Positions 7,679 to 60,460 of a stretch of 64,000 bases of DNA are shown piece after piece. The first letter of the stretch is position 1; every line of letters begins with the position of its first letter. A program made the translations under genes and the position numbers. Origin of the DNA: Candidatus Poseidoniaceae archaeon (lineage in GTDB: Archaea; Thermoplasmatota; Poseidoniia; Poseidoniales; Poseidoniaceae); the NCBI GenBank assembly GCA_964218365.1, contig CAXPMI010000031.1, positions 9,940-73,939 of the forward strand. The letters run 5' to 3'. The notes beneath the pieces were generated by a model. The model was not told where the DNA came from. It searched no databases and saw only the letters and a list, made by a program, of their open reading frames with translations.

Positions 7679-7791
7679 TGCGCCGCAACGAATTGCATTA
7701 GTATATACCATTTTGTTTCGATACGCACAGAGAAACCGCAACACGTAGCATAAATGCGCTCCATTATTATGTATGAAGCCCTACAAAGCAT

Positions 7792-25182: not shown

Positions 25183-25258
25183 GCTTTACCTCAGTAATAG
25201 GACTGCAATGAGTATTTGCGTCGCCACATTGACAAGTAACATCGCTTTGGACAATATT

Positions 25259-26788: not shown

Positions 26789-29700
26789 TCACTTACTATT
26801 TTGTAGATATTGGTGACCATAATGGTTCCATTGTTCCATAGTCCATCCTTCCGGCAAGCCAGTTGGTGGTAATGGAGGTGTAGCGGCACCCGCCCCTTGC
26901 GGTGCTAGAGGTTCGTTCTGCACAGGAGCTACAGGGGCAGCTTGCTGGATTTCAGGAACCATCTTAGTATCCATGTTCTCAATAACCTCAGCAGTTTGGT
27001 CAGATTCGTCAACTTCTTCACCACGACGAATTCTTCGCATTTGTACCATTGTCCAAACAGCGAACGACATCGAAACCAATGCAATCAGATACATAATTAC
27101 AGATAATTGAGAATCTGCAACTTGATTTGCGAGTGCTGTACCGTCTCTTTCGACTTCTTCTTTAACCAATAGTGGCGAAATTGAGATTCTTTCTTTTTCT
27201 ACCCCAGAGTCTAGCAGAAGAATCCTGTGTTCTAGTGTATCATCTACTGCTCCGTCGGCGGTAGCTTCTAGCCTAACTTGGGCTGTCTTGCCACTCGAAA
27301 TTTGAATCGACGAAGAGGATATAGTTGCCCAGTCATCACCAGAAACGAGCCTCTGCAGAACGAATGTCACAGTACCTGATGCTCCTGTGTTTCTGGCCTC
27401 GATGGTAAGTGATACTGCTTCATTTGGAGTTGGAGTTGGATTAGACCATTCCCATGTAGTATCTGCCGCTCTCAGACTAACCTCAGGACCTGTCAAGGCC
27501 AGTGGCCAAGATGCCAATGGGTCAGCGACAGTATTTCCTTCACTGTCGTAAGGATTTCCTGACTCATCTGAACCTGTGACCCAAACGTCAATTGTATACG
27601 ATGGAAGGAGCATGGTAGCACCTCCATCAGTCAGGTCAAGATATCCAGTCCAGAAGAATTGGTCTTCGAATGGCGTAGTATCCGGCAGTGGAGATGATCC
27701 TCTACTGATTTCAGCCTCACCTGCTCTGACCAAGTAATGTAATACTGCAGGATCGTCGAGAGAGAATCCTTGGTCATCTCGTGTTTCAAGCATGACTTGC
27801 AAATTGTTTGCAAGGGAAATCGGAATTTCCTGATTTGGTTCTATTCCTCCCAAAGTTACAGCATGAATTGAAGGTCTTTCACTATCGACTGCTAATCTCA
27901 GTCGTGGTTTGAATTCGGATTCATCTTCAGCAAGGCCTGGGAGGTCTTTCAGTTTAGCACGTAGGTCAAGGTGACCACTTCTAACATCTGGTACAAGCAT
28001 GTCAATACTGAAGTATCCTCCTTCTCTGCTTGTAGTTGTCCATTCATTTTCAAAATCTCCTAGAGAGATTGTGAAAGAGCCTGCAGGAGCAGGAGTCTCA
28101 TCCTCTGAGAAGATTACTCTTCCACTGAAACGAAGAGCTTGTCCTGCACCAATCAATGATTCATCAAATTCAGGATTGTAATGGTTTGTTCCATCTCGCA
28201 ATTCAATCGCGAGAATGTGACCCGGTTGAGTGTCAAAGCGCAAGTCATTATCTAGGCTCCACAAATCATTTCCAAGTCCGGCTTTGTGTATGTTACAAGG
28301 AAGGTCTGTGTCAATTCCACAGGACTTATCTTCAATCCAGACTTTCGGAATAAAGTGCTCATTACCGTTTGTGTCCCAGACCTCAGGGAAGTTCCAAGTC
28401 AGTTGGAACTTAATCGATACAATCATTCTAGATTGGAGCTCTGGGTCCAAAATAATCGAAGAATATAGATTGGAAACAGCCAATCCAGTGCCTCCACTCT
28501 CAAGGTACATCTCAGGCATTCCCATTGAGTTTTGTGAAATGTAGGCAAAAATTGAGGTTTCATCATCATCGAAATCACCAGCTAGCGCCAAGTGTACGAA
28601 TTCTACGTCCCACCATCCATTGATATCAGAAATCATGAATGTTGCAGTGTATGGAATCCCGGGATGTAATGGAGCCATATCATCGTGACCCGTTATGGTT
28701 GAATTATCTACATCCATAATCGGTTCAAACTCCTCTCGGATTGTGTACCAGGATAGCGAGTTATCCCAATCAGGTTTGACTTCACCAGGCTTGTCCCCAC
28801 AGAATCCACCAGATTCTACGTCACAAACAGGTGAACCACCCATGGCAATGGTATTATTTTGACCATCTTTCCCTGTTACATAGAAGGCTACTTTATCTCC
28901 ATGAACAAGCATTGAATCATCGATTAATCCGTTGAAAACGTTCAAACCACCTGGTAATATTTCAGGAGTGGTTAGAGTCTTTGAGCGATATTCGATCGGC
29001 TCTGCTAGTCCATTGAAATTAGAATCATCACATCTTTCATTGACTCCTGCCTCACAACCAATCCAGTAGTGAAGGTCTACGGTTTGTGGAGGAGCAACAG
29101 AATCCTGAATGATTATTTCAATTGCTTGTCCGCCGGGAGAAGGGGGACCTTTATGCATCTCTGATGAAGATTCAGGACTTGCGAAGAGTACCAACGGTGC
29201 ATTGCCGTCAAAAATTAACTTGATTGTATTGTAACCCGGGTTGACATATGTTGAACCATTTTCGAGTTCGGTTGCTTCTACGTAGAGAACCATGCCACCT
29301 GGTTCAGATTCTATTGGGGATGCAAAAGTCATGTTATACTGTCCAAATCCAGGATTTCCTTCAGTATGAAGTACAGTAGGTTCTCCAATAGGGTCACCGT
29401 CGTAAGTTACATTTTGACCGATAACTCTGAGTGTAAATTCACCTGCTCTTGGTGAGAATGCTGAATTTTCAAAGTTGATTCCTCCAGTAATCGAGATATT
29501 CAATCCTCCTCGAACCCAATCGCCGGAAAACAACCCCCTTCCTGTTTCTTCCCATACCCTCATTCCATCTAACTGGATATCGTTCTCGATGTTCAGAGCG
29601 AGCGTGTCTGTTGTCCAACCACTAACTTGTGGACCTAGGTCATCACTCAAGGAAACTATTGCTTCCATCTTCCTCTCATCATCCCATGTCCAATTGACTC

Positions 29701-32146: not shown

Positions 32147-32166
32147 AGACCATCAACCAATATTCC

Positions 32167-32176
32167 GGTATAATTC
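32167..32176 (-). promoter_or_regulatory. Candidate TATA-like element (minus-strand gaattatacc) about 24 nt upstream of the ATG of the 1785-aa gene, implying a leaderless or short-leader mRNA.
   Basis: AT-rich hexamer at the archaeal TATA-box distance, judged by eye only. Confidence 0.25.
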
Positions 32177-32214
32177 ATAGGTCTTGAATTAACCGGCGAA
32201 AGGTCACAATCAGA

Positions 32215-32236
32215 AATCCCCCCTTTAGGGGGGAAT
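32215..32236 (-). terminator. Hairpin CCCCCC-TTTA-GGGGGG immediately after the stop of the 1895-aa gene.
   Basis: A 6-bp G/C stem plus A/T flanks that extend the pairing. Confidence 0.45.
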
Positions 32237-32243
32237 TCTGGTC

Positions 32244-35200
32244 TCATGACGTATTACGACTGTCGTACCTTATTGGTGAGGAATCGCCACGACTTCCATC
32301 TTCTTCGTCGTCCTTTACTTCGAACCAATCTACTAGCCAATCGCCATCGGTGTCCCAATTAAGTGGGTCACTACCCTCTGCGATGTGGTCATCGTCGAGA
32401 TCTAACAGGTACCAACCGAACTCGTGCTCTCCAAGGTCCACAGCAGGAGCACGGTTTGTGCTTCCAGTGTAATACAAATCCCAGTTATCTGTGACGTCTC
32501 CTGAACACAATAATACATCATTTCCTGAGTCCAAAACTAGGAAATCAGTATCCATGTCATCGATGATTAATGCATAACTTAAGTCATCGATGTTTTTCTT
32601 GTTCATGCTGAGATAATTTGTCTGGTCTTCGGTGTTTTCGCCCAATCCTAGAGTGAAAGCTCTAAATTGCCACCATTCTGTAATCGGCGACCCATCCCAT
32701 GTCTCTCCAGAGAGTCTTACAGAGTCTGGGGAGTCTAGATTTGGATTTGCAATCGCAAAGAATTCCATGAAATTAGTGTAAGCGGTATATTCACAAGTTG
32801 CACCACTACAGTCCCAATTTCCATCTTGGTCTGGGTCTTCATTAGCATCTAGAGGATCTCGTGGGTCAAAAGTAGCCCAAGTCCAACCCAATTCAGGACG
32901 AGATAGTGTCCCTGAATCCTGCGATAAAGGTCTACAGGAAACCGTTGAGGAGGTACAGGCTCCACCTGTACCAGGATCTATCCACTGAACTTCAATTTTC
33001 AATCTTGATGAGAAGTTATCATTCGACTCATTCCATCCTTTTTCGTATTCGTACCAATCCGGCAACATATCGCCATCAGTGTCGTTATCCATTGGATTCG
33101 TTCCATACTTGAAGACCTCTCTACCATCAGATAGATTCCAGTCACGGTCGTGAGAGATTACCTGTCCTGAACTGAGTACAGTGTTGAAGGTTACTGCATC
33201 ATAGTCCGAATCGTTTGTATCAGGCCTAGTGCCGTTTAGATACTCCATTAAGTTGGTAAATGGAAGGTCGCCAATTCCGCTTTGGATTATATCGCCTGAT
33301 GCTGTAAATTCTCTGTTTTCCCATACACCCTGAGGAGCAGGAATATCGAAAGAAGTTCGTCCGTACCAACCATCACTATCAGGGTCATAGTTTACGTCAA
33401 ATGGGTTGACTGGATTTGTTGACCAATGATTTTGAGTTGTTGGGTCCGGTAAACCGTAAACAGCATAACAGAATTCCCAACCATCATCGATACCATCTTG
33501 GTCTGAGTCTGAATTAGTTGGGTCTGTAATACCGAACAAGGTTCTGTTAAAGGTGTTTGAATCTGCCGAGTTAATCATTGCCATTCTAGCAGCAGAAATT
33601 GAGTCTTTACCACTAAAGGTATTGAATATTGCACGTCTTGCTTCAGCCTCTGTGTAACCCTCCTCGATATAGGCATCGATAGTATCGTCACCAAATCCAA
33701 TCAATCCTGACCCAGTCGTAAGTCGCTGCGAGAACTTACCGTAAACTCGAGATTCATATTCACGTTTGTTAGTGAACTGTTCCTCAAGAGAAATATTACC
33801 ATCTCTATCACAATCTACCGAGTCCATATCGCTGTCTAACCATTGGTCGGAATCGATCAATGGGTTCATTGACCACCGATTGTTTTCCAAGTCCCACTTT
33901 GTAAACCAATACTCGTAACCATCAATCATTCCATCGTCGTCCGTGTCAGCGATTGTAGGGTCTGTTATTCCCATCAAAGTTGAGATGAAATTATTGGCGA
34001 CACCTGTCGATTGCCACTCTTGGAACTCATCTAGGTGCCTATTTCCTCTTTGCCCCTTGTCGAGAATAATTGTATACACTCTCTGTGCCTTTTGAGTCGG
34101 GTCATTCAAGTCACCATCAATGTGCATTAATGGTGCATCAATCGGGTGGTTTTCTCCATTCTCAGGATTGGTTGTAACGAGCGAAAACTCTTGCGCATCT
34201 GTAAGAGCGTCATCATCTGCGTCGAATGAACCATCACCGGGCACTAGTGGATTTAGAGTCCAAGTCTGTGCTGTGTCATTCCACGCTGTGAACATCAGTT
34301 CCAAACCATCAAGGAATCCATCACCATCGGTATCAGGGTTTGTTGGATCTGTAGTCCATCCTGAGACATTGATTATGTCCTGTCCAACAAATGAGCCAAA
34401 TGATTCAGGATTCGTAATTCCTGCCCACTGTTGAAGGGTATATCCACTTCCAATTGTAGTTACATACCACTGGGGACTAGTTCGATTAGCATTGGTCTCA
34501 GAAAGTTCTGGAGAGATGCTATTGTACTCTTCCCAATTACTCATTCCGTCATCATCGGAGTCATCCCAGCGGTCGTTTGAGTTGAGTGGATCTAAGCTCC
34601 ATTTAGAATCCAGTAATTCCCATCTAGCGTACCAAATCTCCCAACCATCAGGCATTCCATCAGAATCACTGTCTGCATCTGTTGGATCACCTGTCAATAT
34701 ACCATCTCCAAAGTTATCCTCTGGTGCACCCCAATCGGAGATATTCCTGAACAAGTCTGTGGAGAAATTGTTAGGAAGAACTTCGCCATCCAGAGTCATG
34801 TTTCCATCAAACAAATCATCTCGAATATTGTATTCTAACCAATTCACGAATGCCTCGTTTTCTTCTATGATTCCATTGTGATTGATATCATAACCATCAC
34901 CGTCAGGATTTTCAAATGCATCACTTCCATTGAGCGGATTTATTCCAACTCTAGAAACATCCCAGGTACAAGCACCCCGGGCCTCCCAACCATCAGGCAG
35001 ACCATCTCCATCTGAATCTCTATTGTTGGGGTCTGGCTCTGCCCAGAGTTCGACAGCTGCTTCTGTTTCAAAGTGACTTTCAAGTAAATCTCCAATCAGT
35101 CCTGAATCTTTTACCAACGACCACTGATATTCACAAAGATTCGTCAATCCGTCGCCGTCTGCGTCCCATTCCGCATCGTTGGGGTCGCTTGGATCCATTG

Positions 35201-37931
35201 TCCAATTATTTGAACCAGTGAATGACGAACCAATCCATCTCCTGTTCTCTAATTCCCAGCCATCTGGCATTCCATCCCCATCAGAATCAGGGTTGGTTGC
35301 GTCGGTACCAGAATCGATACCCAGAGATTGAAGATATGTGTTGTTTGCAGCAAGACCTGCAGCATCATCACACACGTGTACGAAATCGTATTGGTTAGTG
35401 TAGTGGCAATTCAACGGAGTTACTTCATGAAATAGCCCGAAATATTCCGCTCCATCACCAACTCCGTCACCATCTGTATCAACAACTCTAGGGTCAGTTG
35501 CATTGTAACCATTTGCGGTTGTAGCAGTATATCTGAACTCATCCAAATTCCTCCACAGTCTTTCGTTGATAGGGTCACTATCTAGATTGACACCATCTGC
35601 ATCAGCGTCTAGAAGCGCATCCCATGGATCAGTTGGGTCTAGACCGTACCTAACTTCCCAACCATCCAACATCCCATCTGCATCTGAATCATTTGCCATT
35701 GGATCCATCAGTTCTAGATTCGAGAATTTTCCAGGTCCAATTCCAACAAATATCTTGTCAACTCCTTCTACCTGATAGACTATTGCTGCTGAAATGTAAC
35801 CCGGGATCCACTCCTGGTTTGTCATTCCATAAACTGCAGCATATCCGCCATTTATCGACCACAGACCCCATGCAGAACCGACTATGAGTTCGTTCCCGGT
35901 AGAATAAATCGAGGAAATATCGTTAGCAAAGTCGACTGTTTCACCGTCTATACCTTGATGTTCTAAGTCACCGCCAAAAGTGATTAGTCCAGAAAGAAGG
36001 TCATATCGGTGCAAACCTGAAGGGGTTCCTATCCAAACAACTTGCTCTTGACCGCCTTCTGGCCCGTCACCGAGTAGAGCGTTGACGTGTGCTGGATTTT
36101 TATCAACTTCAGCGCCTATAGTTCTGAGTTCATCAATATCCGTCGCAATTAGAGTTGGTTCTGGAGAGAAGTAGAATCTCCAGTTAGGTGTTGCTGCATC
36201 TCTAGCAGTATTTGTCTCGACAGTCAGTAGTCCTACATCTGTTCCAATGAATAAGGTCAGAGAACCACCGGTTGCATCTACATGTGCGATAGAGGTGACT
36301 GTAGCGTTCCCAGTGTTGAGTGCGTTTGTTATACCAGTTCCAACACTTAGTTGGGAAACAGAAATCTCATTGATTTGGAAAACAGAACCAAATCCAGAGT
36401 ATCCTAGGGCCAGGACGTAATCATCCCCTCCATCTGCAATCAACTGCGCACCAGCTGAATACCTTCCGGGATAGAATTCCCATTGGGTGATTGGCTCGAT
36501 TACTGCCTCGCTATATTCTGCTATCCAAACTCCAGCTTCAGTAACCATAACTACATGATTCTCTAAGATAATCATGTCATGTAAATCGTGCCCTTGGGGT
36601 AATTCGTAATCGGTAGAAACATCGTTATCGAAGTCGATTATTGAAATTCCTAACTTAGTACCCACCCACAATCTTTCACCGTCATCATGGAATCCTCTTA
36701 TGTCATGGTGTATTACTGAGACATCTTCTTCATCAGCTTCTTGTGATAGAAGATACTCTGTGTAAGTACCCTCAGTCGCACTAAGATCTGCAGACCTCAT
36801 TCCTGATTTCACCATGTTTCCATCGTCTAAATGCACAAAGTATTCTTCAAGAGTGGACAATTGTTCACCTAGGGCTAATGCTTCTTCGGAACGTTGTAAA
36901 TCAAGACTTATGATCCCATCTCTGTTGGTATCCCAACCATCGTTATCTAAGTCAATCAACGCGTTGGACCGATTTAGAGGGTCTAGTCCAAAGTGAATTT
37001 CCCAACCATCTGGGATTCCATCCCCGCTAGATGGGAATAAACGACGATGCTTTACACCGTCGTAATTGAATCTGTCACTATCTTCTTCAATTGGGTTGGT
37101 ACCAAGCCAAACATATTCATCGATAACCCCATCCGTGCCATTTCTAGCACAAGCATCAAGGATATTAGTTAGTTTGGTTGAATTAATGTTTTCTGAAATA
37201 AAAGGCCATTCATTCAATGGCGATGCACCTGGATTTGGTGCATGACATCTAAGCCCATCCAGTTCATTTGTCCAATTTGTAGGTGCACCAAAGAGGTATT
37301 CCTCAGGAGAGGTTAGTAACTCACTCACACTCATGAATCCATCTCGGTTTACATCGAATCCGTCGTCATCAGGATCTAAATCAGCATCACTGGCGTTCAA
37401 TGGGTCAAACATTTCACAGACGTATCGCTTTTCTTCGGTATCAAATCCACCGAGTTTTTCGCACATGTGTGCTTCATAGCCATCCGGCATTCCGTCTCCA
37501 TCGGTATCTGCAACTCTTGGGTCGAGGTACCAACGTTCACCAGACTCGTTGATTACTCCTGTAAGGCCTCTAGTAAATCCGGGGTCAACACATTCTGCTG
37601 GATAAGGCCAACAATATTCTTCCGTAGCATTCAGCCCATCGAGGTCTATATCGATGTAAGCGTCAGAAGCATCATCTCTGTCCATCCCTTTCATGACTAC
37701 AGCCCTATTATCTGGAGAAGAGAAGTTTATCCAGTCGCTGAACAAGTTCTCGTGCACATCGGGAATATTGTCTCCGTCTGAATCTGTAGCAGGAGGCCTC
37801 TCACCTTCCGTAAAATTAGGATTAGTAGTACCTACATTGGAGATAGCAGGTAATTGTGAAACAAAGAACAAACCTAGGACAACAAGAATAGTCATGAGAA
37901 GCGTTGATTGAGAGCGTCGCATTGTCATCAC
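32244..37931 (-). CDS. Giant secreted protein (1895 aa) carrying more than 12 thrombospondin-type-3-like calcium-binding repeats (D-x-D-x-D-G-x-P-D-G-[WY]-E) and beta-propeller-like regions.
   Basis: Signal MMTMRRSQSTLLMTILVVLGLFFVSQLPA. Repeated DTDGDGMPDGYE, DSDGDGMPDGWE, DSDGDGLPDGWE, DSDSDGMPDGWE, DTDGDGFLDGLE, DTDDDGMIDGYE, DSDQDGIDDGWE and others. There is no C-terminal TM. Confidence 0.85.
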   Translation of the reverse strand: MMTMRRSQSTLLMTILVVLGLFFVSQLPAISNVGTTNPNFTEGERPPATDSDGDNIPDVHENLFSDWINFSSPDNRAVVMKGMDRDDASDAYIDIDLDGLNATEEYCWPYPAECVDPGFTRGLTGVINESGERWYLDPRVADTDGDGMPDGYEAHMCEKLGGFDTEEKRYVCEMFDPLNASDADLDPDDDGFDVNRDGFMSVSELLTSPEEYLFGAPTNWTNELDGLRCHAPNPGASPLNEWPFISENINSTKLTNILDACARNGTDGVIDEYVWLGTNPIEEDSDRFNYDGVKHRRLFPSSGDGIPDGWEIHFGLDPLNRSNALIDLDNDGWDTNRDGIISLDLQRSEEALALGEQLSTLEEYFVHLDDGNMVKSGMRSADLSATEGTYTEYLLSQEADEEDVSVIHHDIRGFHDDGERLWVGTKLGISIIDFDNDVSTDYELPQGHDLHDMIILENHVVMVTEAGVWIAEYSEAVIEPITQWEFYPGRYSAGAQLIADGGDDYVLALGYSGFGSVFQINEISVSQLSVGTGITNALNTGNATVTSIAHVDATGGSLTLFIGTDVGLLTVETNTARDAATPNWRFYFSPEPTLIATDIDELRTIGAEVDKNPAHVNALLGDGPEGGQEQVVWIGTPSGLHRYDLLSGLITFGGDLEHQGIDGETVDFANDISSIYSTGNELIVGSAWGLWSINGGYAAVYGMTNQEWIPGYISAAIVYQVEGVDKIFVGIGPGKFSNLELMDPMANDSDADGMLDGWEVRYGLDPTDPWDALLDADADGVNLDSDPINERLWRNLDEFRYTATTANGYNATDPRVVDTDGDGVGDGAEYFGLFHEVTPLNCHYTNQYDFVHVCDDAAGLAANNTYLQSLGIDSGTDATNPDSDGDGMPDGWELENRRWIGSSFTGSNNWTMDPSDPNDAEWDADGDGLTNLCEYQWSLVKDSGLIGDLLESHFETEAAVELWAEPDPNNRDSDGDGLPDGWEARGACTWDVSRVGINPLNGSDAFENPDGDGYDINHNGIIEENEAFVNWLEYNIRDDLFDGNMTLDGEVLPNNFSTDLFRNISDWGAPEDNFGDGILTGDPTDADSDSDGMPDGWEIWYARWELLDSKWSLDPLNSNDRWDDSDDDGMSNWEEYNSISPELSETNANRTSPQWYVTTIGSGYTLQQWAGITNPESFGSFVGQDIINVSGWTTDPTNPDTDGDGFLDGLELMFTAWNDTAQTWTLNPLVPGDGSFDADDDALTDAQEFSLVTTNPENGENHPIDAPLMHIDGDLNDPTQKAQRVYTIILDKGQRGNRHLDEFQEWQSTGVANNFISTLMGITDPTIADTDDDGMIDGYEYWFTKWDLENNRWSMNPLIDSDQWLDSDMDSVDCDRDGNISLEEQFTNKREYESRVYGKFSQRLTTGSGLIGFGDDTIDAYIEEGYTEAEARRAIFNTFSGKDSISAARMAMINSADSNTFNRTLFGITDPTNSDSDQDGIDDGWEFCYAVYGLPDPTTQNHWSTNPVNPFDVNYDPDSDGWYGRTSFDIPAPQGVWENREFTASGDIIQSGIGDLPFTNLMEYLNGTRPDTNDSDYDAVTFNTVLSSGQVISHDRDWNLSDGREVFKYGTNPMDNDTDGDMLPDWYEYEKGWNESNDNFSSRLKIEVQWIDPGTGGACTSSTVSCRPLSQDSGTLSRPELGWTWATFDPRDPLDANEDPDQDGNWDCSGATCEYTAYTNFMEFFAIANPNLDSPDSVRLSGETWDGSPITEWWQFRAFTLGLGENTEDQTNYLSMNKKNIDDLSYALIIDDMDTDFLVLDSGNDVLLCSGDVTDNWDLYYTGSTNRAPAVDLGEHEFGWYLLDLDDDHIAEGSDPLNWDTDGDWLVDWFEVKDDEEDGSRGDSSPIRYDSRNTS

Positions 37932-38112
37932 CTAAGGGCGCGGTAGCACCCATGCAGTTTGTTACTATGGAATCAGCCTTAATAGAGTGATGGAGCAATG
38001 TTCAGACTCAGATTACCTTTGGTAATCTAAAACGATTAAGCAAATCAATAGAAAATGAGAATTTCAAGGGGTGAGTTCAAGGGCCCAACGCGTTGCCGTC
38101 CCTTAGTTCGAG

Positions 38113-38931: not shown

Positions 38932-38946
38932 GCCCTGTAAGGGCTT
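38929..38946 (+). terminator. Hairpin AAGCCC-TGTA-GGGCTT overlapping the MBL stop codon.
   Basis: GGGCTC-family hairpin seen directly. Confidence 0.4.
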
Positions 38947-38991
38947 GGTTTTGGTGAAACCCTAAGAGGGTGGTTCACTCTCTCCTGCACA

Positions 38992-40029
38992 ATGAGGTCA
39001 CAACGCAAGTCCGGAAGTGACCTCGCCGTCAGTGAAGTCATTGGTGTCGTGATGCTGCTTGCGATGGTAATCACAATGATGGGAGGAGTGTTTGTATTTC
39101 TTACCCCATATGTGAATGATTTTCAAGATAATACCGCATGGTCAAACGCAAATGGGATTGCGGAAAGGCTAGACGGAAGAATCGATGTCGTTGCAGGAGC
39201 AAGTGCAGACACCGGACTTAGAACTACAATTCCCTTGACTATGAGCTCGATTTCTCCTATAATAAGTGCAGAAGTATGGACTGTTTCTGCTGATTTGACT
39301 GCGGGAGAGACTGTCACGGTCAATTACATCAATCAAACAACATTCAGTATACTATCGGAAAATGAAACAGCAGACCGTGCGGTAATATGGACAGAAGGTG
39401 GGGAAGTCGAAATATCATTCAATGAAACATACGAAGAAATTTTGATTAAACACAATTTGAGTGTTGCAGACATTTACATTGTAACAGTGTTCGATGGAGA
39501 GAATGAGATACACAAGCATGCAAAGATACCAATTTCAGGATTAATGGTAAAGACCAAAGTTCAGACTGGTGAGCATTCGATTGGACTCCTGAATGATGCT
39601 CGTTACGACAAATTCACTGATGAAACCTGGAGTATAACTTCGTCTCCTGACATGAATATTGAAGAGTTATTTGATGGCACAATGAGAGCTAGTTTGTCTC
39701 TGAGAGACGTAGACACAGTTGGTGCAATTCCAGACGGTAGAAACGCAATCTTCGATATCCGTTCAGAAGGTCCGATTACCCTGTTTAGTGGTGATGCATG
39801 GAATTTCAGATTTACATTTGACTCATCACTAGGACCAACTGTCGCCCCACAGATGACAGAGGGATGGTTAACCGACTACAACCTTCACAGAGCGTCGAAT
39901 ACTCTAGACCAACATAGAGGAATCAGTCCTTGGTTGAGGGCAAGTGGAATCGATGGTATGACAATCGACCACGGCAATTCTGTAATCGATCTTGAAATCG
40001 AATTGCAATTGGTGGAGGTTAGCAGATGA
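38992..40029 (+). CDS. Archaeal type IV pilin-like protein (class III signal peptide), 345 aa.
   Basis: N-terminus MRSQRKSGSDLAVSEVIGVVMLLAMVITMMGGVFVFL. It has a charged n-region, a small residue, then VSE (Glu at +3) and a long hydrophobic helix, as in archaeal prepilins/DUF1628-type pilins. Confidence 0.65.
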   Translation: MRSQRKSGSDLAVSEVIGVVMLLAMVITMMGGVFVFLTPYVNDFQDNTAWSNANGIAERLDGRIDVVAGASADTGLRTTIPLTMSSISPIISAEVWTVSADLTAGETVTVNYINQTTFSILSENETADRAVIWTEGGEVEISFNETYEEILIKHNLSVADIYIVTVFDGENEIHKHAKIPISGLMVKTKVQTGEHSIGLLNDARYDKFTDETWSITSSPDMNIEELFDGTMRASLSLRDVDTVGAIPDGRNAIFDIRSEGPITLFSGDAWNFRFTFDSSLGPTVAPQMTEGWLTDYNLHRASNTLDQHRGISPWLRASGIDGMTIDHGNSVIDLEIELQLVEVSR

Positions 40030-42074
40030 TGCAAAATAACCTCCGCAGGGACGAGGAAGCAGTTAGCGCTGCTGTAGCCACCGTTCTACTCTTTGGAGGA
40101 GTAATTTCAATTATTGGAATTATGCTACTTTCCTTGATGCCAGTTATACAAGAATTAGAAGGTTCTCTCAAGAGAAATGATATGCAAGCCCAAATGGAGA
40201 TAATGGCTCACGAAGTAACATTATTGTCTGAATCCGGATTACCTGGCGACTCTAGTCAAGTCCAACTTATTCCGGTTGATGGTGAATTACGATGGGATAG
40301 ACTCAGAGGAGGAATGTGGTATTCTGCATCTTGGTATGAAGGTGATACTTTCAGAATCCAAGGGGCTCTAGACTTGGACCGAAATATCGACGTAAGGCAT
40401 GCCGAAAGCAATGTACAGGCGATTTGCTATGAAGATATGAGACTAGGTCCAGACAGACCATTCATATTCTCCCCAAATAATCAAACCGATACAATACTAG
40501 TAACACCTAAACATGGTTTGACAATACCCCTCGGTCCTGTTGAAATTGAACACGCAGGAATAGAGCACTCTCTTTCGATAGGAGAGGTTATGAGTTTAGA
40601 TTCAAACCACCAAATCAAATCAAGTCATGATTTGGTTGGCTTACAGATAAGAGGGGATTCGGGAGTTGCACTTATGCCACCTTCCAAGGCAAATCCCTCA
40701 ACTGGTAAGGGGCAACATTGGGCAATTCCTCTACCAGTGGGAGAAACTACAATCGAAGTCTTCGCAGACGATGACATCCTCGTTCAATGGCAGACTCTAA
40801 CTGAATCTGGGCAAGAAGCAATACCCCAAACCACAGCTGTTAGAATAGCAAACTCATGGACAAAAACATTCAATCTATCAGAGATTAGTTTAGTGGAGAT
40901 AGTTACTGACGTCGATGCTCATCTGATTATTTCTCATGGCAATTCTGGTAAAACCTCACTGTTGGGAGAAGAGGGGAATTATCTCTCTAAGCACTTCATA
41001 GCGCCTTCGCAATCTGGGAATTTATCGTTCTCTAATCCGAGTCAAAATGCTGCAACAATTACATGGAAAAATGGCGGCATATCTGTACCTGCCAACCAAA
41101 CCATAGAAGTTGAGTGGCCTCCATCTAATATCGATAGTGCTGCGATCTTAGAAAGTAGCGAGAATGTTCTCGTTCAGTGGAAACTAAATGACAAAGGAAT
41201 GACATTCTTACCTGCAACCGACACAGGTCAAATCACTGGACTAGATTTCATTGAAGATAATTCACAGACGATTATCAACCATTCTTCTGAATATGGTGAC
41301 TATCAATCAAAATTGGCAAAAGATGGGAATTCGGGAATTCTTGCGCTAGAGGATGATGGAGCTATGCGCTGTGTCGCAATAGACCAGACTGCATCCGGAT
41401 GGATTTCAACTACCCTGCCGTGGAAATCAATGAATGGTATACCCGAAGGGCAGATCATCACTGCTTGGAGAAATGGAGATCACCCCGCAAGTATTGAGAT
41501 AACTTTGATTGGGACAGAAGGAGATGCAACTCACGCTAACTTAGCAACAGCATGGGCATTCCATATATCGAGATTAACATACGAATTTGATACCTCGATT
41601 ACAGGCCTTGAAGTTGCATGGTCTGCCGGTGCAATTGTTACAAATCATCCCGAGTTAGATCCTACAATATTAGTTGGACCAACAGACAGACAGGGCCCAG
41701 GGCCAAGGTTCAGTGCAACAATACCTTCGATGCACCCTACTCAAACATCAGTTACTGGTAGCGGGATAATGAACCTTGATATCGAACTATCAATGAGAGA
41801 AAGTCTTGCCTCTACAACAGCCTATGATGTGAGGAGAGGGTGGGTAGGTCCGTATGGAGATGCGGTTGCTTCTTGGGCAAGTACAAGCCTAGAGACTTCC
41901 GAAGACTGGATAGTTAATCCCGGAAGAATTGACTTGCTTACAGACTATGTTGGTTGGGTCCCTGTTCCTACAGTTGGACCTAGTGAAGCCGTATGGCATA
42001 CAGCAGGTCAGCCAATACAGTTCAATCTGCAAATTAGCAGCCTAGATGTTGAAATTTCGGAGGCGGGGTCATGA
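40026..42074 (+). CDS. Archaeal type IV pilin-like protein, large (682 aa).
   Basis: N-terminus MMQNNLRRDEEAVSAAVATVLLFGGVISIIGIMLL. Its start overlaps the upstream stop (ATGA), which suggests an operon. Confidence 0.65.
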   Translation: MMQNNLRRDEEAVSAAVATVLLFGGVISIIGIMLLSLMPVIQELEGSLKRNDMQAQMEIMAHEVTLLSESGLPGDSSQVQLIPVDGELRWDRLRGGMWYSASWYEGDTFRIQGALDLDRNIDVRHAESNVQAICYEDMRLGPDRPFIFSPNNQTDTILVTPKHGLTIPLGPVEIEHAGIEHSLSIGEVMSLDSNHQIKSSHDLVGLQIRGDSGVALMPPSKANPSTGKGQHWAIPLPVGETTIEVFADDDILVQWQTLTESGQEAIPQTTAVRIANSWTKTFNLSEISLVEIVTDVDAHLIISHGNSGKTSLLGEEGNYLSKHFIAPSQSGNLSFSNPSQNAATITWKNGGISVPANQTIEVEWPPSNIDSAAILESSENVLVQWKLNDKGMTFLPATDTGQITGLDFIEDNSQTIINHSSEYGDYQSKLAKDGNSGILALEDDGAMRCVAIDQTASGWISTTLPWKSMNGIPEGQIITAWRNGDHPASIEITLIGTEGDATHANLATAWAFHISRLTYEFDTSITGLEVAWSAGAIVTNHPELDPTILVGPTDRQGPGPRFSATIPSMHPTQTSVTGSGIMNLDIELSMRESLASTTAYDVRRGWVGPYGDAVASWASTSLETSEDWIVNPGRIDLLTDYVGWVPVPTVGPSEAVWHTAGQPIQFNLQISSLDVEISEAGS

Positions 42075-42541
42075 CAAATAGATTGGTCGATGACGAATCT
42101 GGAGCTAGCACTGAACTTGGCTACATTTTCACATTCATGCTCGGAGTATTGTTCCTCTCAATGTTTAGTGTCTGGGCGTTTGGCTTAGAAACGTCAACTA
42201 GGGAGAACTGGAATAGAACTGCTGTAGATGTTAACATGGCAGATATTGCTGCTGCGGTTGAAAGGGCCGATATGGCAAGCAGAGAAGACTCTAGTGTGAG
42301 TTACGCAGAAGTAGTGACATGGAGATTAACCGAAGCAGACGAGACCGACTTTGTTCTCACCTTGGATGACACTGGACTATCACTCGATCATAGCGAGAAT
42401 GAACTGGACAGAGAAGTTTCGATATCTGGAACGGGATATGGTACATATGATGGAAGAATCAATCTTTCAGGGACTGCAGAGATTTGGGTCGTTTACCACG
42501 AAGGTGTGACCTATCTCTCAACAACTAGACCAGATTTCTGA
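42071..42541 (+). CDS. Archaeal type IV pilin-like protein, small (156 aa).
   Basis: N-terminus MTNRLVDDESGASTELGYIFTFMLGVLFLSMF (DDxxGxSTE plus hydrophobic). Its start overlaps the upstream stop. Confidence 0.6.
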   Translation: MTNRLVDDESGASTELGYIFTFMLGVLFLSMFSVWAFGLETSTRENWNRTAVDVNMADIAAAVERADMASREDSSVSYAEVVTWRLTEADETDFVLTLDDTGLSLDHSENELDREVSISGTGYGTYDGRINLSGTAEIWVVYHEGVTYLSTTRPDF

Positions 42542-45073: not shown

Positions 45074-45120
45074 TCATTCCCCTATTCCTCTTAGAGTGTT
45101 GTGTATTTCCGTGTTAGAAA

Positions 45121-48100
45121 TTACTGCTGAGGAGGCCTGTAGTTTGGATCTGCAACCCACTGGTTGGTTTGGGCATCCCAAATCCAACCTGGATGCTGAG
45201 GCTGAGCAGCAGGTACAGGAGCAGGAGCAGGTGTTAATTCACCTGCAGAAGCTGCTGCTTGTTCTGCGGCCCTTGCTTTTGCCCATGCATACGGGTCTTC
45301 CTCTTTTTGCATCTCAGCCAATGCGGCTTCATCATCTTCAAACTCTTCCTCAAACTCAAGGAAGAAGAAAGCGCCAACAGCAAGGAGAATCGCAATGACT
45401 ACCACCGCAATAACAATCCAAACCCAAGAGGAAACACCATCAGTTCCTGTTTCTCCTTTCTTTAGAGTGATAGAGTTACCGTCGTCTTTTCCAATGAATT
45501 GACCATCTTGTTCAAAGTATATCTCAAAACTACCATCTCTATCAAGAGCAGAGGAGCTAATATCCATATTCCAAAGGCCGTCTTCGCCAACAACGGTGTC
45601 ATTCAGTTTTATGTCACCCTTCACAAGTCTTGCTGTGACAACAGAATTTGGTAATCCTGTACCCTTGAACTCAGCTGAGTCCCCAAACTTAACTGCACCT
45701 TCATCCGTTCTCTCAGCCGTGAACTCGACACCGCGTACAACGAAGTTAACTTGGTAAGAATACGCTACAGAATCGAAGGCATCTCTTGCTTCGAACATTA
45801 CTCCTTGCATAGACCACTCAGAGATTTCGCTTGAGGTTTGATACATTGAATCCATTGGATTGTAAATCGCTTTACCATCAGGCGTGATTCTGATATGATA
45901 TGCATAATCATCATCGATTGCAGTTGAAGGGTCATCACGGACATCGAAAACCATGTGACTGGATTGTGGTCCTACTCCATCTGAATCATTGAAATAATCC
46001 AACAAATTGATTTCCACACCTTCGCCACACTTATCGAATGCACTGGACTTTTCATCACAGAAGATTGTGATAGTATCAACCCAGCCGGTTGGATTGAATG
46101 TAGGTGCCATGTTGTCTGCATCCGCAGGGTTATCAATTACGATACGTACTGTTTCCATCAATGAGTAGTCCACACCATCATAAGCCCTAACTTGAACTTC
46201 ATATTGCTGGTCGTGAATCAGATTGCTAGTATCCCAATATGTGAACCATGCACCATTAGGCTGGAACGAGGTAATTGGGTTTGGACCATTGTTTAACTCG
46301 ATTCCACTAGCAAGGTCAATAATTGTGATTTCAACACGTGTTACTTGACCATCGTTATCTCGTGCCACACCACTGATAATTGTCTCATCTGATGCTCTTA
46401 CACTCTCCATTGGAAGTGGTTCACTGACTTGGACAATTGGAATACGGTTATCATTATCGATTGTAATAGTGATTACTTCTGGATCACATACATCTACAAC
46501 TTCATGACAATAATTTGAGTCGCTTGCCCAAACTGTGAATGTGTAGTCACCACTTGGCAGTGACGAGAAGTTCCATGTATCGGCCCAAGCTGCTGCACCA
46601 CCTGCATTTGCAGGGTAGTTTGCAGAATAGTTGTTAGGTCCTTGAACACTAAACCAGATGTCTCTGATATCGCTACCCTGTACACCTTGGTAGTCATCAG
46701 AAGCTGTTCCTGTGAAGAGAACTTCCTGTCCGTCGTGAGTAGATCCATCCAATGGAGTATCAAGATTGATTGTTGGAGGATTGATATTAAGCTTGAATAC
46801 TCGAGTGCTTACAATTGATTCTTCCAGCCCATCGTAGGACCTGACTCTGAATGTAACATCCTCTTCGAAGTGGTTTGCCATATCCCAATTGAAACTCCAA
46901 GTTTTGAATGGCCAGTTTGCCATGGTAACTTCACCGTTAGCGCCTGATGTGTCTGTTGCTAGATACCAATCTTGGCTTCCATGAGGTTGGATCTCCACCC
47001 TCTTGATGTCACCAAATTGCTTCAGCCATGAATCATAGTCATTGAAGTACGGACCAGATTGTCCATCATGTGAAGATCCAGTTAGGGAAATAGTTCTTGC
47101 AAATGAGGTGCCGTCGTTTTGGTCTACACTCACAGATGGTGCAATGTTAACAAGATTGATGACTTCATCAACCATGCCGGTTAGAGTGAAATCATGTGTA
47201 GATGTTCCCTTGCTAAACTTCTTTGCTTCAACTGAATATGTTGGCAATTCACGGTTTCCGGATTGACAGTCTGGATCTTGGCCATCAGCTAGTGTGTCAC
47301 CGTCATTGTCGATACCGTCGCTACAGGAATCTTCACCTTGGTCTGTTGCTTGATGATTCCAGTTTCTATCGATGTGGAAGTTTGATGGAAGTGTAACCCA
47401 CGGCGTGTAACCGTAAGGGTCGGTAGTCATGTTGTACAACGGCTTTCCATTTGCATCTTTGATTGTTACAAGAGCGTCGGAAACTTGTGAGTTGTCTGCT
47501 TTGACTTGATACCTTACGAGTTCTCCTTGCTCAACTTGGACACCCCATGCAGTGTTTTGATTTTGGATGTGGATCTTCGACCTATCGAAGTTCTGAACAT
47601 CTGAGTAAGTGAATGTCGTAGCATTCTCATTTAGTTCCATAGCAAGAGGCATGAACTTTGGAGGCCATACACCAGTAAGCGGAACTTGTAGGCACACTGA
47701 AGAGTCCCAAGGACACTCTCTGTCATCCCAAGTTAGCATGACTGGATACATCTGATTGCCACCTGGGTCTGGCATGAACTCGCTCTGTACAGCAACACGT
47801 GATTCTGTAACGTTGTAAATCTGCGATGCATTGGAGTATGAGTTACCAGAGAAGTAAGCAATAGAACCGTATTTGTTTCCATAATTATCATCATACAGCG
47901 AAATATTTGCTGCGAAACCACCAACTTCTATGTTGTTATTTTGAGCGTTGACAATGCCGCCCTTTATCCTGAATCCATCCCCTACGTTATTTGATACCGT
48001 ATTGTCCATGAATGTAGCAGAGGCCATGTAGACGTGGAATGCGGGACAAGGGAAATCTCCTCCATACATTTCAACGGAGTTACATGTTCCTGTATTGTTA

Positions 48101-49416
48101 GAGATTATGTTATTTGCAAAATACAGGCGGGCTTTGCTTGGAGATGGGACGTTCCATCCCTGATCCTTGTGGTGGTATTCACCTATCAGTACTGGTTCTT
48201 TTGCTGTGTTGAGAATTGTATTGTTTTCTGCACTCACATCAGATTCACCATAAATCCACAGACCGTTCCATCCACCGATTGGGCCGATTGTGTTGCCATT
48301 GGCTGTTACGAAAGAAGAGCGGATACCAAATCCTGAACCTTCTGCAGAACCTGAAATAGTATTTCTTTCAGCAAGAACAATTGCACCATCGTACGCAGTA
48401 ATTCCTGCTCCGTCAGTAGGAGTGATTACGTTGTCTGAAATTACGAATGTGTAATTTTGGCCATTAGCAGACAAATGGGAGTTTGTATCGATAGCGTTAC
48501 ACTTTGTGGTAACTGTAGAGTTTGTTAGATAACCACTGCTCGAGCGCAAAAACGCTCCGTAAGAATTCTGTGTGACTGAAATAGTATCCATTCTAACGAA
48601 AGAGTTCTCAAGGTAAATTGCTGAACGACCTCCACCTTGGGCTCCACAATCAGTCTCTTCCCCTGTGAACGCAGAATTCAGTACTTGCATGACCACAAGA
48701 CCTGCACCTGCACCGTATGCCTGTATTGCAGCGCCGTGGTAACCTTCCTCATCAATTCCAACCTCGAAGGTTCCTCCATCTAAGGTAGGCGATGCACCGT
48801 TGATTGCCAACACGTTTGTTGTATTGATATTCCTGAAAGTTGGATTGTTTACACTCAAACTTGCACCGTCGAAGACCATTGCTCCGTACTTGATGGATCC
48901 TTGACCATCAATATCGATAGGGATACCGTATGCACCGTCTAGTGTTACGTGGTTCAGACGGGTCAGTGACTGGTCGATTGTAGAATCAAGGTATATTCCA
49001 GAACCACAAGCCATGTCTGGATTGAAAATACCTGTTACATAACATCTGCCTGTTTGGTTAGGAGCTGGTGCTGCCGGTGCGCCCCAAATGAAACGGATAG
49101 GAGAACCTGTACTTGCTTGTGATGCACCACAAGAACTGTCACCTGCACAAATCGAACCTTGGATGTTAATGTTCTTGTCTGCAGGTATGTTGATTGTAGT
49201 TCCAGCATTGATGATTAATTTCGCACCACCAGCGACCAATAGGTCACCGTCCATGTTCATGACTCCGGTCCAGGTTTCTGTACCGGTAATTGTTCCTGAT
49301 GATGTTTCATTCACCGCCATTGCTGACGGAGCGGTTGATACCATAGTTACAAACAGGGAAACTAGGAATAAACTCACTAAACCTACACTCTTACTTTTTT
49401 GGACGTTTACTGACAT
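45121..49416 (-). CDS. Giant secreted parallel beta-helix protein (about 1430 aa) with a Ca-binding-like DNDGD/DPDC motif, Ig-like domains, a C-proximal TM anchor and a Pro-rich cytoplasmic tail.
   Basis: Signal MSVNVQKSKSVGLVSLFLVSLFVTMVSTAPSAMA. PbH1-like repeats (NNIISNNTG..., DNTVSNNVGDGF..., NNNIEVGG). CSDGIDNDGDTLADGQDPDC. TM WVWIVIAVVVIAILLAVGAFFFL, then a tail ...PAPAPVPAAQPQHPGWIWDAQTNQWVADPNY. The track ORF starts at 49461; the signal-peptide Met maps to 49416. Confidence 0.85.
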   Translation of the reverse strand: MSVNVQKSKSVGLVSLFLVSLFVTMVSTAPSAMAVNETSSGTITGTETWTGVMNMDGDLLVAGGAKLIINAGTTINIPADKNINIQGSICAGDSSCGASQASTGSPIRFIWGAPAAPAPNQTGRCYVTGIFNPDMACGSGIYLDSTIDQSLTRLNHVTLDGAYGIPIDIDGQGSIKYGAMVFDGASLSVNNPTFRNINTTNVLAINGASPTLDGGTFEVGIDEEGYHGAAIQAYGAGAGLVVMQVLNSAFTGEETDCGAQGGGRSAIYLENSFVRMDTISVTQNSYGAFLRSSSGYLTNSTVTTKCNAIDTNSHLSANGQNYTFVISDNVITPTDGAGITAYDGAIVLAERNTISGSAEGSGFGIRSSFVTANGNTIGPIGGWNGLWIYGESDVSAENNTILNTAKEPVLIGEYHHKDQGWNVPSPSKARLYFANNIISNNTGTCNSVEMYGGDFPCPAFHVYMASATFMDNTVSNNVGDGFRIKGGIVNAQNNNIEVGGFAANISLYDDNYGNKYGSIAYFSGNSYSNASQIYNVTESRVAVQSEFMPDPGGNQMYPVMLTWDDRECPWDSSVCLQVPLTGVWPPKFMPLAMELNENATTFTYSDVQNFDRSKIHIQNQNTAWGVQVEQGELVRYQVKADNSQVSDALVTIKDANGKPLYNMTTDPYGYTPWVTLPSNFHIDRNWNHQATDQGEDSCSDGIDNDGDTLADGQDPDCQSGNRELPTYSVEAKKFSKGTSTHDFTLTGMVDEVINLVNIAPSVSVDQNDGTSFARTISLTGSSHDGQSGPYFNDYDSWLKQFGDIKRVEIQPHGSQDWYLATDTSGANGEVTMANWPFKTWSFNWDMANHFEEDVTFRVRSYDGLEESIVSTRVFKLNINPPTINLDTPLDGSTHDGQEVLFTGTASDDYQGVQGSDIRDIWFSVQGPNNYSANYPANAGGAAAWADTWNFSSLPSGDYTFTVWASDSNYCHEVVDVCDPEVITITIDNDNRIPIVQVSEPLPMESVRASDETIISGVARDNDGQVTRVEITIIDLASGIELNNGPNPITSFQPNGAWFTYWDTSNLIHDQQYEVQVRAYDGVDYSLMETVRIVIDNPADADNMAPTFNPTGWVDTITIFCDEKSSAFDKCGEGVEINLLDYFNDSDGVGPQSSHMVFDVRDDPSTAIDDDYAYHIRITPDGKAIYNPMDSMYQTSSEISEWSMQGVMFEARDAFDSVAYSYQVNFVVRGVEFTAERTDEGAVKFGDSAEFKGTGLPNSVVTARLVKGDIKLNDTVVGEDGLWNMDISSSALDRDGSFEIYFEQDGQFIGKDDGNSITLKKGETGTDGVSSWVWIVIAVVVIAILLAVGAFFFLEFEEEFEDDEAALAEMQKEEDPYAWAKARAAEQAAASAGELTPAPAPVPAAQPQHPGWIWDAQTNQWVADPNYRPPQQ

Positions 49417-49523
49417 AATACACCCTCGGCATGTTGTCCAAATACTGGACCGCCTTAACACATTGGGATAGATTTCAATTGAAAAGTATCAATTATCAAG
49501 GAAAATATCATCTTTTTTGCCCC

Positions 49524-49532
49524 TATAAATTA
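49524..49532 (-). promoter_or_regulatory. Candidate TATA box (minus-strand TTTATAGGG) in a 195-bp AT-rich region upstream of the beta-helix giant gene.
   Basis: Seen by eye. About 106 nt upstream of the proposed ATG. Confidence 0.25.
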
Positions 49533-49611
49533 ACAAAATATCAATTACTGGAAAGAATATCATATGTTTATAGATGACTCATTACCGTCTCTGTGCACCG
49601 TTTAGAAGATA

Positions 49612-50829: not shown

Positions 50830-50869
50830 AGTTCAACACTACCACGTCAATGGCTTCAATATATGTCTG

Positions 50870-50902
50870 AAACCAACAGGATTCTGCCTCTATAATGGAG
50901 GC
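50870..50902 (-). terminator. 12-bp perfect-stem hairpin AGGATTCTGCCT-ctataatgg-AGGCAGAATCCT just downstream of the 3179-aa gene stop.
   Basis: Inverted repeat seen directly. It lies between the giant gene and the subtilase start. Confidence 0.5.
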
Positions 50903-50920
50903 AGAATCCTTGTTGGAATA

Positions 50921-60460: not shown

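Follow-up and report, generated by a model that had tools for sequence, protein, structure and literature searches.

The block between 25.5 and 60.5 kb of the window analysed here (64,000 nucleotides of an archaeal chromosome from Candidatus Poseidoniaceae, the family corresponding to Marine Group IIa) probably represents a core, vertically inherited envelope-gene neighbourhood of the order Poseidoniales, which is divided into about six independent transcription units and is neither one operon nor a mobile island. This reading is built on gene content, domain architectures, the motifs of the oligosaccharyltransferase AglB, order-wide synteny, separate promoter elements and terminator-like hairpins. 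The units comprise aglB; an S8 subtilase gene; the genes of a beta-helix giant and a STAND factor; a metallo-beta-lactamase (MBL)-fold hydrolase gene with three pilin-like genes; the gene of a TSP3 giant; and the gene of a propeller giant followed by genes of a 140-aa protein and a zincin (Table 1). Apart from AglB, the giants are named by product size in window numbering (1895, TSP3 giant; 1785, propeller giant; 1446, beta-helix giant). Of the concrete results, the most interesting is the unit of beta-helix giant and STAND factor with its helically phased candidate operator, which we infer to be the one real regulatory module of the block. All open reading frames (ORFs) listed in the initial annotation of this DNA were recovered in place, and its view of a region devoted to secreted or membrane proteins was confirmed: According to the ORF list combined with transmembrane (TM) and signal prediction, such proteins account for 10,145 of the 11,400 amino acids encoded in the block (89%). 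Domain scans likewise agreed with its identification of the giant AglB, the S8 subtilase, the MBL hydrolase, the three pilin-like genes, the TSP3 protein and the beta-helix protein.

The block had been labelled a candidate glycoprotein-biogenesis island, and a check of its composition against that of the housekeeping flanks had been suggested; composition gave no island signal. The GC content stays between 0.41 and 0.47 throughout the window without a step at the block, no tRNA gene and no Rfam family was found in the window, no integrase occurred among the Pfam matches of its proteins, and the gene order was the same in all loci examined. A horizontally acquired island was therefore ruled out, since the GC content is flat, tRNA genes are absent from the window and every gene of the block is core. 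According to the Pfam scan, the region is flanked by genes for CDP-archaeol synthase, purD, DnaJ, ribosomal protein S15, GluRS, RNase HII, PheRS-beta and GAPDH.

Seven contigs (L001-L007) were retrieved via orthologues of AglB or of the 1895-aa protein, among them the high-GC lineage L007 and a locus of Marine Group IIb (MGIIb; L006), whose 1895-aa orthologue has Thalassarchaeaceae as its source name. Their genes follow the order purD-AglB-S8-beta-helix-STAND-(pilin x3 and MBL on the other strand)-1895-1785-140-(zincin)-Pcp/NUDIX-168 aa-GT2. A relative of the STAND factor was present in 505 GTDB species genomes; among the 80 of these species loci that were kept for order comparison, gene order and orientation were identical in every case as far as each contig extends, six long MGIIb-like metagenome loci agreed in the order AglB-S8-beta-helix-STAND-(pilin x3)-MBL-1895, and the extension 1785-140 aa(-zincin) was kept in all four loci reaching that far. 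The co-localisation that the initial annotation had expected among relatives was thus found. However, the housekeeping neighbours purD, CarS, Pcp-NUDIX and GT2 are equally syntenic, and synteny within this collinear order is therefore not discriminating for functional coupling. Moreover, all block genes are core and of near single length across the order, a finding that had been named beforehand as speaking against a single system. For annotation in general, perfect synteny within a collinear lineage is no evidence of a functional system.

Tight gene spacing was confined to three places: the 140-aa gene lies 17 bp downstream of the 1785-aa gene and is followed after 8 bp by the 252-aa zincin gene, the genes of the pilin-like trio overlap in their start and stop codons, and a gap of 47 bp separates the beta-helix gene from the STAND gene downstream. 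Hairpins separate the units after aglB, the 1895-aa gene and the MBL gene, and no motif common to the unit promoters was found. The 1895-aa gene is preceded at a fixed distance of 72-74 nt by the 30-nt element GTCYGAACAWYGYTCCATCAYYCTMWTAAG, which is unique in the window and is conserved in both families, including the high-GC lineage and the MGIIb locus (48 of 60 loci match the regular expression; most of the others are one base off); in some genomes, the element includes a GAAC-N3-GTTC palindrome. As a candidate for a promoter-shared motif, GCTCCATCA-like 9-mers were rejected: they are commoner than in shuffled sequences, but almost without exception they fall within coding regions, and the element as a whole occurs only once in the window. 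Neither one transcript nor a shared cis-element, by which a single operon or regulon would be recognised, was indicated, since hairpins lie between the units and the TGATAY array described below occurs only at the 1446 promoter. The cis-elements are distinct and none is common to the units, which therefore points to independent promoters plus one local module, the beta-helix and STAND genes.

The beta-helix giant, for which the ATG at position 49416 is the probable start codon, begins with a signal peptide and further comprises a right-handed beta-helix (PF13229 with 44.3 bits in a piecewise scan, gathering cut-off (GA) 25.9; Beta_helix matches were obtained for orthologues too), an acidic Cys-rich Ca-type repeat, Big_7 Ig-like domains and a TM segment; a profile search of PDB sequences gave nothing useful for this protein. 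Its 75-aa cytoplasmic tail (45121-45345) contains the segments DPYAWAK and HPGWxWDxxxxxWxxDPxY, both invariant in the orthologue alignment. Right after the predicted signal-peptide cleavage site, the segment A-V-N-E-T-x-S-G-T-I-T-G-T-E-T-W is conserved (49290-49320), with the N-E-T sequon at positions 2-4 of the predicted mature protein.

The STAND factor encoded downstream possesses a nucleotide-binding oligomerisation domain (NOD) with Walker A (GIAGIGKT, residues 203-210), Walker B (LIVIDD, 285-290) and GxP (RGHPL, 377-381) motifs, and its residues 172-497 match PH0952 of Pyrococcus horikoshii (PDB 6MFV, E 2e-25). A tetratricopeptide repeat (TPR) sensor follows at residues ~550-830 (TPR_12, 90.8 bits; TPR_MalT, 33.9 bits), whereas the N-terminal winged helix-turn-helix (wHTH, ~15-85) reaches only 19.3 bits with HTH_Crp_2 (GA 27), with residues 29-84 almost invariant in the alignment. 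The regulator with wHTH and TPR parts that had been annotated was hence recovered as a PH0952/MalT-type protein; the NB-ARC label did not hold, as the NB-ARC model gave no match at E<=0.01 and the matches obtained were AAA_16, AAA_22 and nSTAND1/6. Conservation within the block is highest for the STAND factor, which shows 86% identity where purD shows 77% and AglB 60%, and 57-69% where AglB shows 47%. An exact look-up of the window's STAND sequence yielded no contig, probably owing to a different start-codon call. In locus L034, what looked like a 330-bp insertion in the STAND gene proved to be a stretch of N, and the shortness of the STAND call in L001 is due to a frameshift.

Upstream of the beta-helix gene, the four direct TGATAY boxes are arranged in two pairs with a spacing of 19 bp within each pair and the sequence TTTATA between the pairs (49529-49524). 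The pair pattern has only two matches in the window, both at the 1446 promoter, versus 0.43 expected; at least one pair with the same spacing and orientation was present in all 62 species loci holding the spacer upstream of the beta-helix gene, and in ~1.5 Mb of related loci 110 of 111 pairs sit at this promoter. The array, with the extended consensus WWW-TGATAY-TWT, was seen in L001-L003, L008-L087 and L091-L098, and is present in MGIIb-like loci too. Depending on the clade, the distance from pair to pair is 31-32, 42-43 or 52-53 bp, i.e. it changes in steps of one helical turn.

PH0952, predicted to act as a transcription factor, has the wHTH-NOD-TPR architecture of the window STAND protein, and MalT multimerises with ATP and inducer (PMC6468293). 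The order of N-terminal wHTH, NOD, arm and TPR in the window protein matches that of PH0952, including the Walker A, Walker B and GxP motifs. MalT acts on repeated asymmetric MalT boxes; by analogy, the presumed target of the STAND factor would be a set of asymmetric direct repeats on one helix face. In contrast to PH0952 and MalT, the window STAND gene follows the gene of a giant surface protein, and its DNA binding is only predicted. In the proposed mechanism, the giants would be exported via Sec and anchored by C-terminal TM segments (1785, 1446 and AglB), the S8 subtilase by an N-terminal segment and the zincin by a lipid; the sequon-rich 1895-aa protein and AglB's own extension would be N-glycosylated by AglB. 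The STAND factor would be switched on via its TPR sensor, oligomerise with ATP and bind the phased TGATAY repeats cooperatively through its invariant wHTH, thereby controlling its own operon as MalT does on repeated MalT boxes. Binding of the boxes by the STAND factor is suggested by adjacency, the invariant wHTH and the MalT analogy.

Table 1. Genes and cis-elements of the block (positions of the 64-kb window).
Feature	Position	Strand	Basis or remark
Lipobox (LVGC) zincin, 252 aa	25582..26340	-	
Cytoplasmic Leu-rich protein, 140 aa	26349..26771	-	
Propeller giant, 1785 aa	26789..32146	-	Signal peptide, TM 1679-1703, all-beta predicted fold
Terminator-like G+C-rich hairpin (CAGAATTCCCCCC...GGGGGGATTTCTG)	32211..32240	-	After 1895-aa stop codon; analogue in L004 and L006
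TSP3 giant, 1895 aa, acidic (13% Asp), secreted or N-terminally anchored	32244..37931	-	TSP3_bac
Conserved promoter-region element GTCYGAACAWYGYTCCATCAYYCTMWTAAG	37975..38003	-	Upstream of 1895-aa gene
MBL-fold hydrolase, cytoplasmic, 272 aa	38113..38931	+	Pfam Lactamase_B, Lactamase_B_2
Short hairpin with T-run	38932-38944	+	3' of MBL gene
Three pilin-like genes, 345, 682 and 156 aa, one operon	38992..42541	+	DUF7289, Pilin_N, DUF7266
STAND factor, 843 aa, PH0952/MalT-type	42542..45073	-	Pfam AAA_16, nSTAND, TPR_12, TPR_MalT, HTH_Crp_2
Beta-helix giant, 1431 aa from probable ATG	45121..49416	-	ORF open to 49461 (1446 aa)
Operator-like array, four direct TGATAY boxes	49562-49557, 49543-49538, 49510-49505, 49491-49486	-	Upstream of beta-helix gene
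Membrane-anchored S8 subtilase, 405 aa	49612..50829	-	Pfam S8, TM prediction
Terminator-like hairpin, 13-bp stem and T-rich tail	50878..50910	-	Directly after aglB stop; also in L001
Giant AglB, 3179 aa	50921..60460	-	Pfam STT3, CarboxypepD_reg, FixG_C; AlphaFold2 and Foldseek

The catalytic motifs and the fold of the giant AglB are intact; its transferase activity is only predicted, from sequence and model. Residues 403-800 match STT3 (PF02516) with 59.7 bits (GA 24.5), and the motifs DAD (425-427, in the first external loop) and WWDYG (952-956) are invariant in 59 orthologues; full-length orthologues measure 3138-3245 aa and extend down to 45% identity. In the AlphaFold2 (AF2) model, which covers residues 1-1150 (predicted local distance difference test score, pLDDT, 68), the core (~360-1100) was matched by Foldseek to Archaeoglobus fulgidus AglB (7E9S/3WAK; E 7e-12, probability 1.0) and also to eukaryotic STT3 (probability 1.0). 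The invariant D970-N-F-Q973 after WWDYG is a clean fit to neither the DxxK nor the MxxI pattern, and the NCBIfam model archaeo_STT3 gave 184.8 bits, under its cut-off of 450. Compared with the A. fulgidus AglB-L (PDB 3WAK/7E9S), the GT-C membrane domain, the DXD-type motif in the first external loop, the WWDYG motif and the fold are the same, whereas the Poseidoniales protein is 3-4 times longer by two additions. Ahead of the first TM helix of the STT3 core, a conserved N-terminal extension of ~355 aa is present, for which AF2 predicts ~9 TM helices and profile searches detected no Pfam relative and no PDB sequence relative; on the C-terminal side, an extracellular extension of ~2,000 aa contains beta-sandwiches of prealbumin-like (CarboxypepD_reg/NOMO-like) type, and a second membrane anchor closes the protein (3147-3171). 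The protein contains 49 sequons (z=4.95 versus shuffles). Within residues 1-355 (window 59396-60460), an extension specific to Poseidoniales AglB, R192-G193, G202-W-F204 and E281-R-W283 are invariant.

Giant AglBs as such are not unique to the Poseidoniales, a supposition that was rejected on the basis of a search for AglB relatives in 1.84 billion cluster representatives: More than 100 clusters at 50% identity contain AglBs of 2,000-2,800 aa (e.g. P0377, P0504/P0510, P0455), including those of a Thermoplasmata metagenome-assembled genome (MAG) and of Caldiplasma sukawensis, the latter annotated only as "carboxypeptidase regulatory-like domain-containing protein". These possess the STT3 core and a CarboxypepD_reg-rich extension and match only from query residue ~360 on, so that they are without the N-terminal extension. 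In a Thermoplasmata MAG (L088), aglB is directly preceded on its own strand by an 8,356-aa ORF, the gene of a 1,077-aa Ig/PKD protein and a 76-aa ORF, which are nearly contiguous (L088:1-6512) and look like an operon; in L090, a 4,565-aa transglutaminase/PKD giant is encoded near aglB, and in Caldiplasma (L089) aglB is situated among housekeeping genes. None of the S8, beta-helix, STAND and pilin genes was found beside giant aglB in L088-L090; this combination of genes is thus peculiar to Poseidoniales. Judging from two of these three outgroup loci, the habit of aglB to lie near giant surface proteins may be older than the order.

In Haloferax volcanii, aglB is flanked by glycosyltransferase, flippase-like and sugar-modifying genes. 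In contrast, the Pfam scan revealed no glycosyltransferase, flippase or sugar-biosynthesis gene at 25.5-60.5 kb, and aglB of the Poseidoniales adjoins candidate substrates instead; the sole glycosyltransferase family 2 (GT2) gene, at 22.7 kb, is 27 kb off behind unrelated genes and reached only 32.7 bits with the AglJ model (cut-off 325), by which its former reading as a Dol-P-sugar synthase could not be confirmed. The Haloferax agl cluster (PMC2952790) and the block have in common that aglB resides in a neighbourhood concerned with surface glycoproteins.

The S8 subtilase (PF00082, 142.2 bits) carries its catalytic triad D120/H155/S333 in an external domain that is preceded by a TM segment (59-87) and a 58-aa cytoplasmic N-tail (PEPxDxRILSA...WRxEVxGWAP), which is conserved across the species loci. 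The closest NCBIfam model is mycosin, at 125.8 bits and under its cut-off. Subtilases of family S08A are reported to be highly transcribed in Marine Group II (MGII; PMC5069720), as is the oligosaccharyltransferase (PMC9723583).

The 1895-aa giant contains nine dispersed TSP3-type Ca-binding motifs (D[ST]DxDGxxDGxE; TSP3_bac, 37.8 bits in a piecewise scan, GA 25) and more sequons than expected from its composition (z=3.3); its orthologues, one of them named Thalassarchaeaceae, almost all measure 1875-2039 aa and extend down to 43% identity. "Thrombospondin" genes are widespread in Poseidoniales and have been read as adhesion factors (Rinke et al., PMC6461757). For the 1785-aa giant (orthologues 1754-1835 aa), which had no family match and for which the profile search of PDB sequences gave nothing useful, a five/six-bladed beta-propeller followed by a chain of beta-sandwich domains was predicted, and its cytoplasmic tail (26789-27034) ends in a conserved LPxGWTxEQWxHYG. 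The 140-aa gene is kept beside the 1785-aa gene in L004-L007; its product matched no Pfam family even at E<=10. In the zincin, the motifs HEAGHLLGLVN, HEDPDHPGH and SVMY (a possible Met-turn) were recognised, and no PDB match was obtained by profile search. The secreted HExxH protease of the initial annotation therefore stands as a zincin, while its assignment to the metzincins was rejected: the position of the third ligand, His or Asp in metzincins, is an invariant Asn, and the M10 score (17.8 bits) is below the GA of 24.

Like large archaeal and bacterial surface adhesins, S-layer glycoproteins and integrin-alpha-like ectodomains built of a propeller and beta-sandwich legs, the giants combine a signal peptide, an all-beta multidomain ectodomain, a C-terminal anchor, TSP3 motifs and sequons. 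In contrast to these, they are devoid of tandem repeats and of a PGF-CTERM/archaeosortase signal, possess conserved cytoplasmic tails and are encoded by core genes of near-fixed length instead of variable accessory genes. BLASTP comparison among the giants revealed neither internal repeats nor mutual similarity, and they are therefore unlike variable repeat adhesins; no known S-layer protein family was found to be resembled by them in family and PDB sequence profile searches. Trp-containing cytoplasmic segments are conserved in three proteins of the block, namely in the tails of the 1446- and 1785-aa giants and in the N-tail of the S8 subtilase (50656-50829). None of the three tails matched Pfam even at E<=10; one cytoplasmic partner shared by the three proteins could dock to these segments.

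The pilin-like operon is convergent with the STAND gene and is conserved in all loci. Each of its products has a hydrophobic N-terminal helix and, as in archaeal type IV pilin-like proteins (Pilin_N/DUF1628, DUF7289, DUF7266), a short charged N-terminus precedes this class III signal-peptide-type helix, with three genes forming one operon. The 345-aa protein matched DUF7289 (30.4 bits, GA 27), whereas the other two matches are just below GA (Pilin_N, 23.7 versus 25.2; DUF7266, 27.5 versus 27.6). The trio further differs from archaeal type IV pilins in the 682-aa member, which is far beyond the size of structural pilins, and in its surroundings: no pilus assembly ATPase, TadC-like platform protein or prepilin peptidase was found by Pfam in the 64-kb window. 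In L005 (5614-7835), the 682-aa gene appears as two ORFs (408 and 346 aa), either by a gene split or by an assembly frameshift. A literature search on DUF7289 and DUF7266 found no paper. For the MBL hydrolase, which shows 56-74% identity across the order, PDB and NCBIfam matches were generic only.

The co-regulated system proposed in the initial annotation comprised the STAND factor as master regulator, AglB as dedicated glycosylase of the giants, and the S8 subtilase and the zincin as processing proteases. Its surface theme and synteny hold, given perfect co-localisation across the order and the dominance of surface proteins in the coding capacity; further points in its favour are the similarity of the S8 subtilase to the processing protease mycosin (though under cut-off), the conserved Trp segments in S8, 1446 and 1785 that hint at a common cytoplasmic partner, and the position of giant AglB beside giant surface proteins in two of three outgroup loci. 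The single-system interpretation is in this sense partly supported. As a whole, with one master regulator and processing proteases, it appears improbable: the promoters have no common motif and the TGATAY array stands at only one of them, terminator-like hairpins lie between the units, the housekeeping flanks are as syntenic as the block, glycan-assembly genes are missing from it, the zincin is absent from the MGIIb locus L006, and AglB is the order's conserved giant oligosaccharyltransferase, the gene of which is placed among housekeeping genes in Caldiplasma. Equally improbable is a pathway of outside-in signalling without a two-component system, made up of the beta-helix giant and the STAND factor, in which the invariant Trp-rich tail would be read or sequestered by the TPR sensor, surface contact or a ligand would release or activate the STAND factor to oligomerise on the phased TGATAY boxes, and the GW...W tails of 1785 and S8 would use the same reader. 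The retention of MalT at the membrane by MalK is a parallel; if true, the envelope system encoded by the block would be genuinely coupled to signalling, and this in the most abundant surface-ocean archaea.

Somewhat less remote, though still unlikely, is a purely structural role, according to which the four giants, including the ~2,000-aa rod of AglB returning to the membrane, would form the main MGII envelope (an S-layer-like canopy or glycocalyx) and the block would consist of housekeeping wall genes. The giants are core, of single length and non-repetitive, evolve at AglB-like rates in contrast to hypervariable adhesins, and carry membrane anchors at their ends; 1895 and AglB show the sequon excess, and the Thermoplasmata, most of which are wall-less (PMC5155288), widely possess giant AglBs that have the same extension. 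However, no resemblance to a known S-layer family was found, beta-helices and propellers are folds more usual in binding proteins or enzymes, and the window flanks encode further secreted proteins that are equally possible coat proteins. A foraging toolkit, which we regard as about as doubtful as the structural coat, is another conceivable reading: the S8 subtilase, the zincin and the beta-helix and propeller giants would be cell-bound hydrolases or binders of high-molecular-weight protein and polysaccharide, the STAND factor would sense a breakdown product, and the link to AglB would be positional only. MalT senses maltotriose, and the architecture of the regulator is MalT-like. Right-handed beta-helices and five-bladed propellers are common in polysaccharide lyases and GH43/GH32 hydrolases, and S08A subtilases are dominant among the expressed extracellular peptidases of MGII (PMC5069720).

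The core neighbourhood of about six independent units remains the probable interpretation, against which several points have to be weighed. The proposed limits of its units were drawn from hairpins, gene spacing and conserved elements at the promoters, and an arrangement kept over two families could reflect selection for co-localisation that is invisible to these tests. A G+C-rich hairpin is located between the 1446 and STAND genes in MGIIb loci and in the high-GC L007, so that co-transcription of the two may not be universal; given that adjacency and conservation are the grounds for the proposed binding of TGATAY by the STAND factor, the boxes could be the site of another factor, and the scan for TGATAY pairs covered the window and ~1.5 Mb of related loci. 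Furthermore, relative to compositional expectation, sequons are not enriched in the 1785- and 1446-aa giants.

Poseidoniales, which are uncultured, rank with the most abundant surface-ocean archaea. The block supplies universally conserved candidates for envelope components, namely four giant proteins anchored in the membrane and an unusual oligosaccharyltransferase of 3,179 aa, and the STAND factor with its helically phased candidate operator represents a testable regulatory module. Giant AglBs are a general and apparently undiscussed feature of Thermoplasmata, of which the Poseidoniales form has an extra membrane domain. A literature search found no description of the block, the giant AglB or the TGATAY array, and a search on AglB beside pilin-like genes and on MGII surface proteins yielded nothing describing the block; as the search was incomplete, this is absence of evidence only.

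Outside the block, a protein with three fasciclin domains and a cupredoxin domain is encoded at 5696-7744 on the minus strand; its C-terminus NTPGFLGLTAILATLGAVLFARKR is a PGF-CTERM-type signal, an anchor used by none of the four giants, and therefore implies an archaeosortase elsewhere in the genome. Additional secreted or membrane proteins of 308, 790, 674 and 695 aa with unassigned function are present in the flanks. The gene at 24235-25182 (minus strand) encodes a pyroglutamyl peptidase (Pcp, C15) and a NUDIX domain fused in one 315-aa protein, the position of which is conserved order-wide. Between this gene and that of the zincin, two ORFs overlap on opposite strands (25028-25597, plus; 25186-25503, minus): public gene calls choose the strand opposite to the block, and tblastn aligns the same-strand frame too. 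At ~62630-64000 on the plus strand, a secreted protein is cut off by the end of the window; to judge from the similarity of its N-terminus (…ATQITADTEDSASGTLSGEYTVESGATWTVSG…) to that of the beta-helix giant, it may be a paralogue of the latter.

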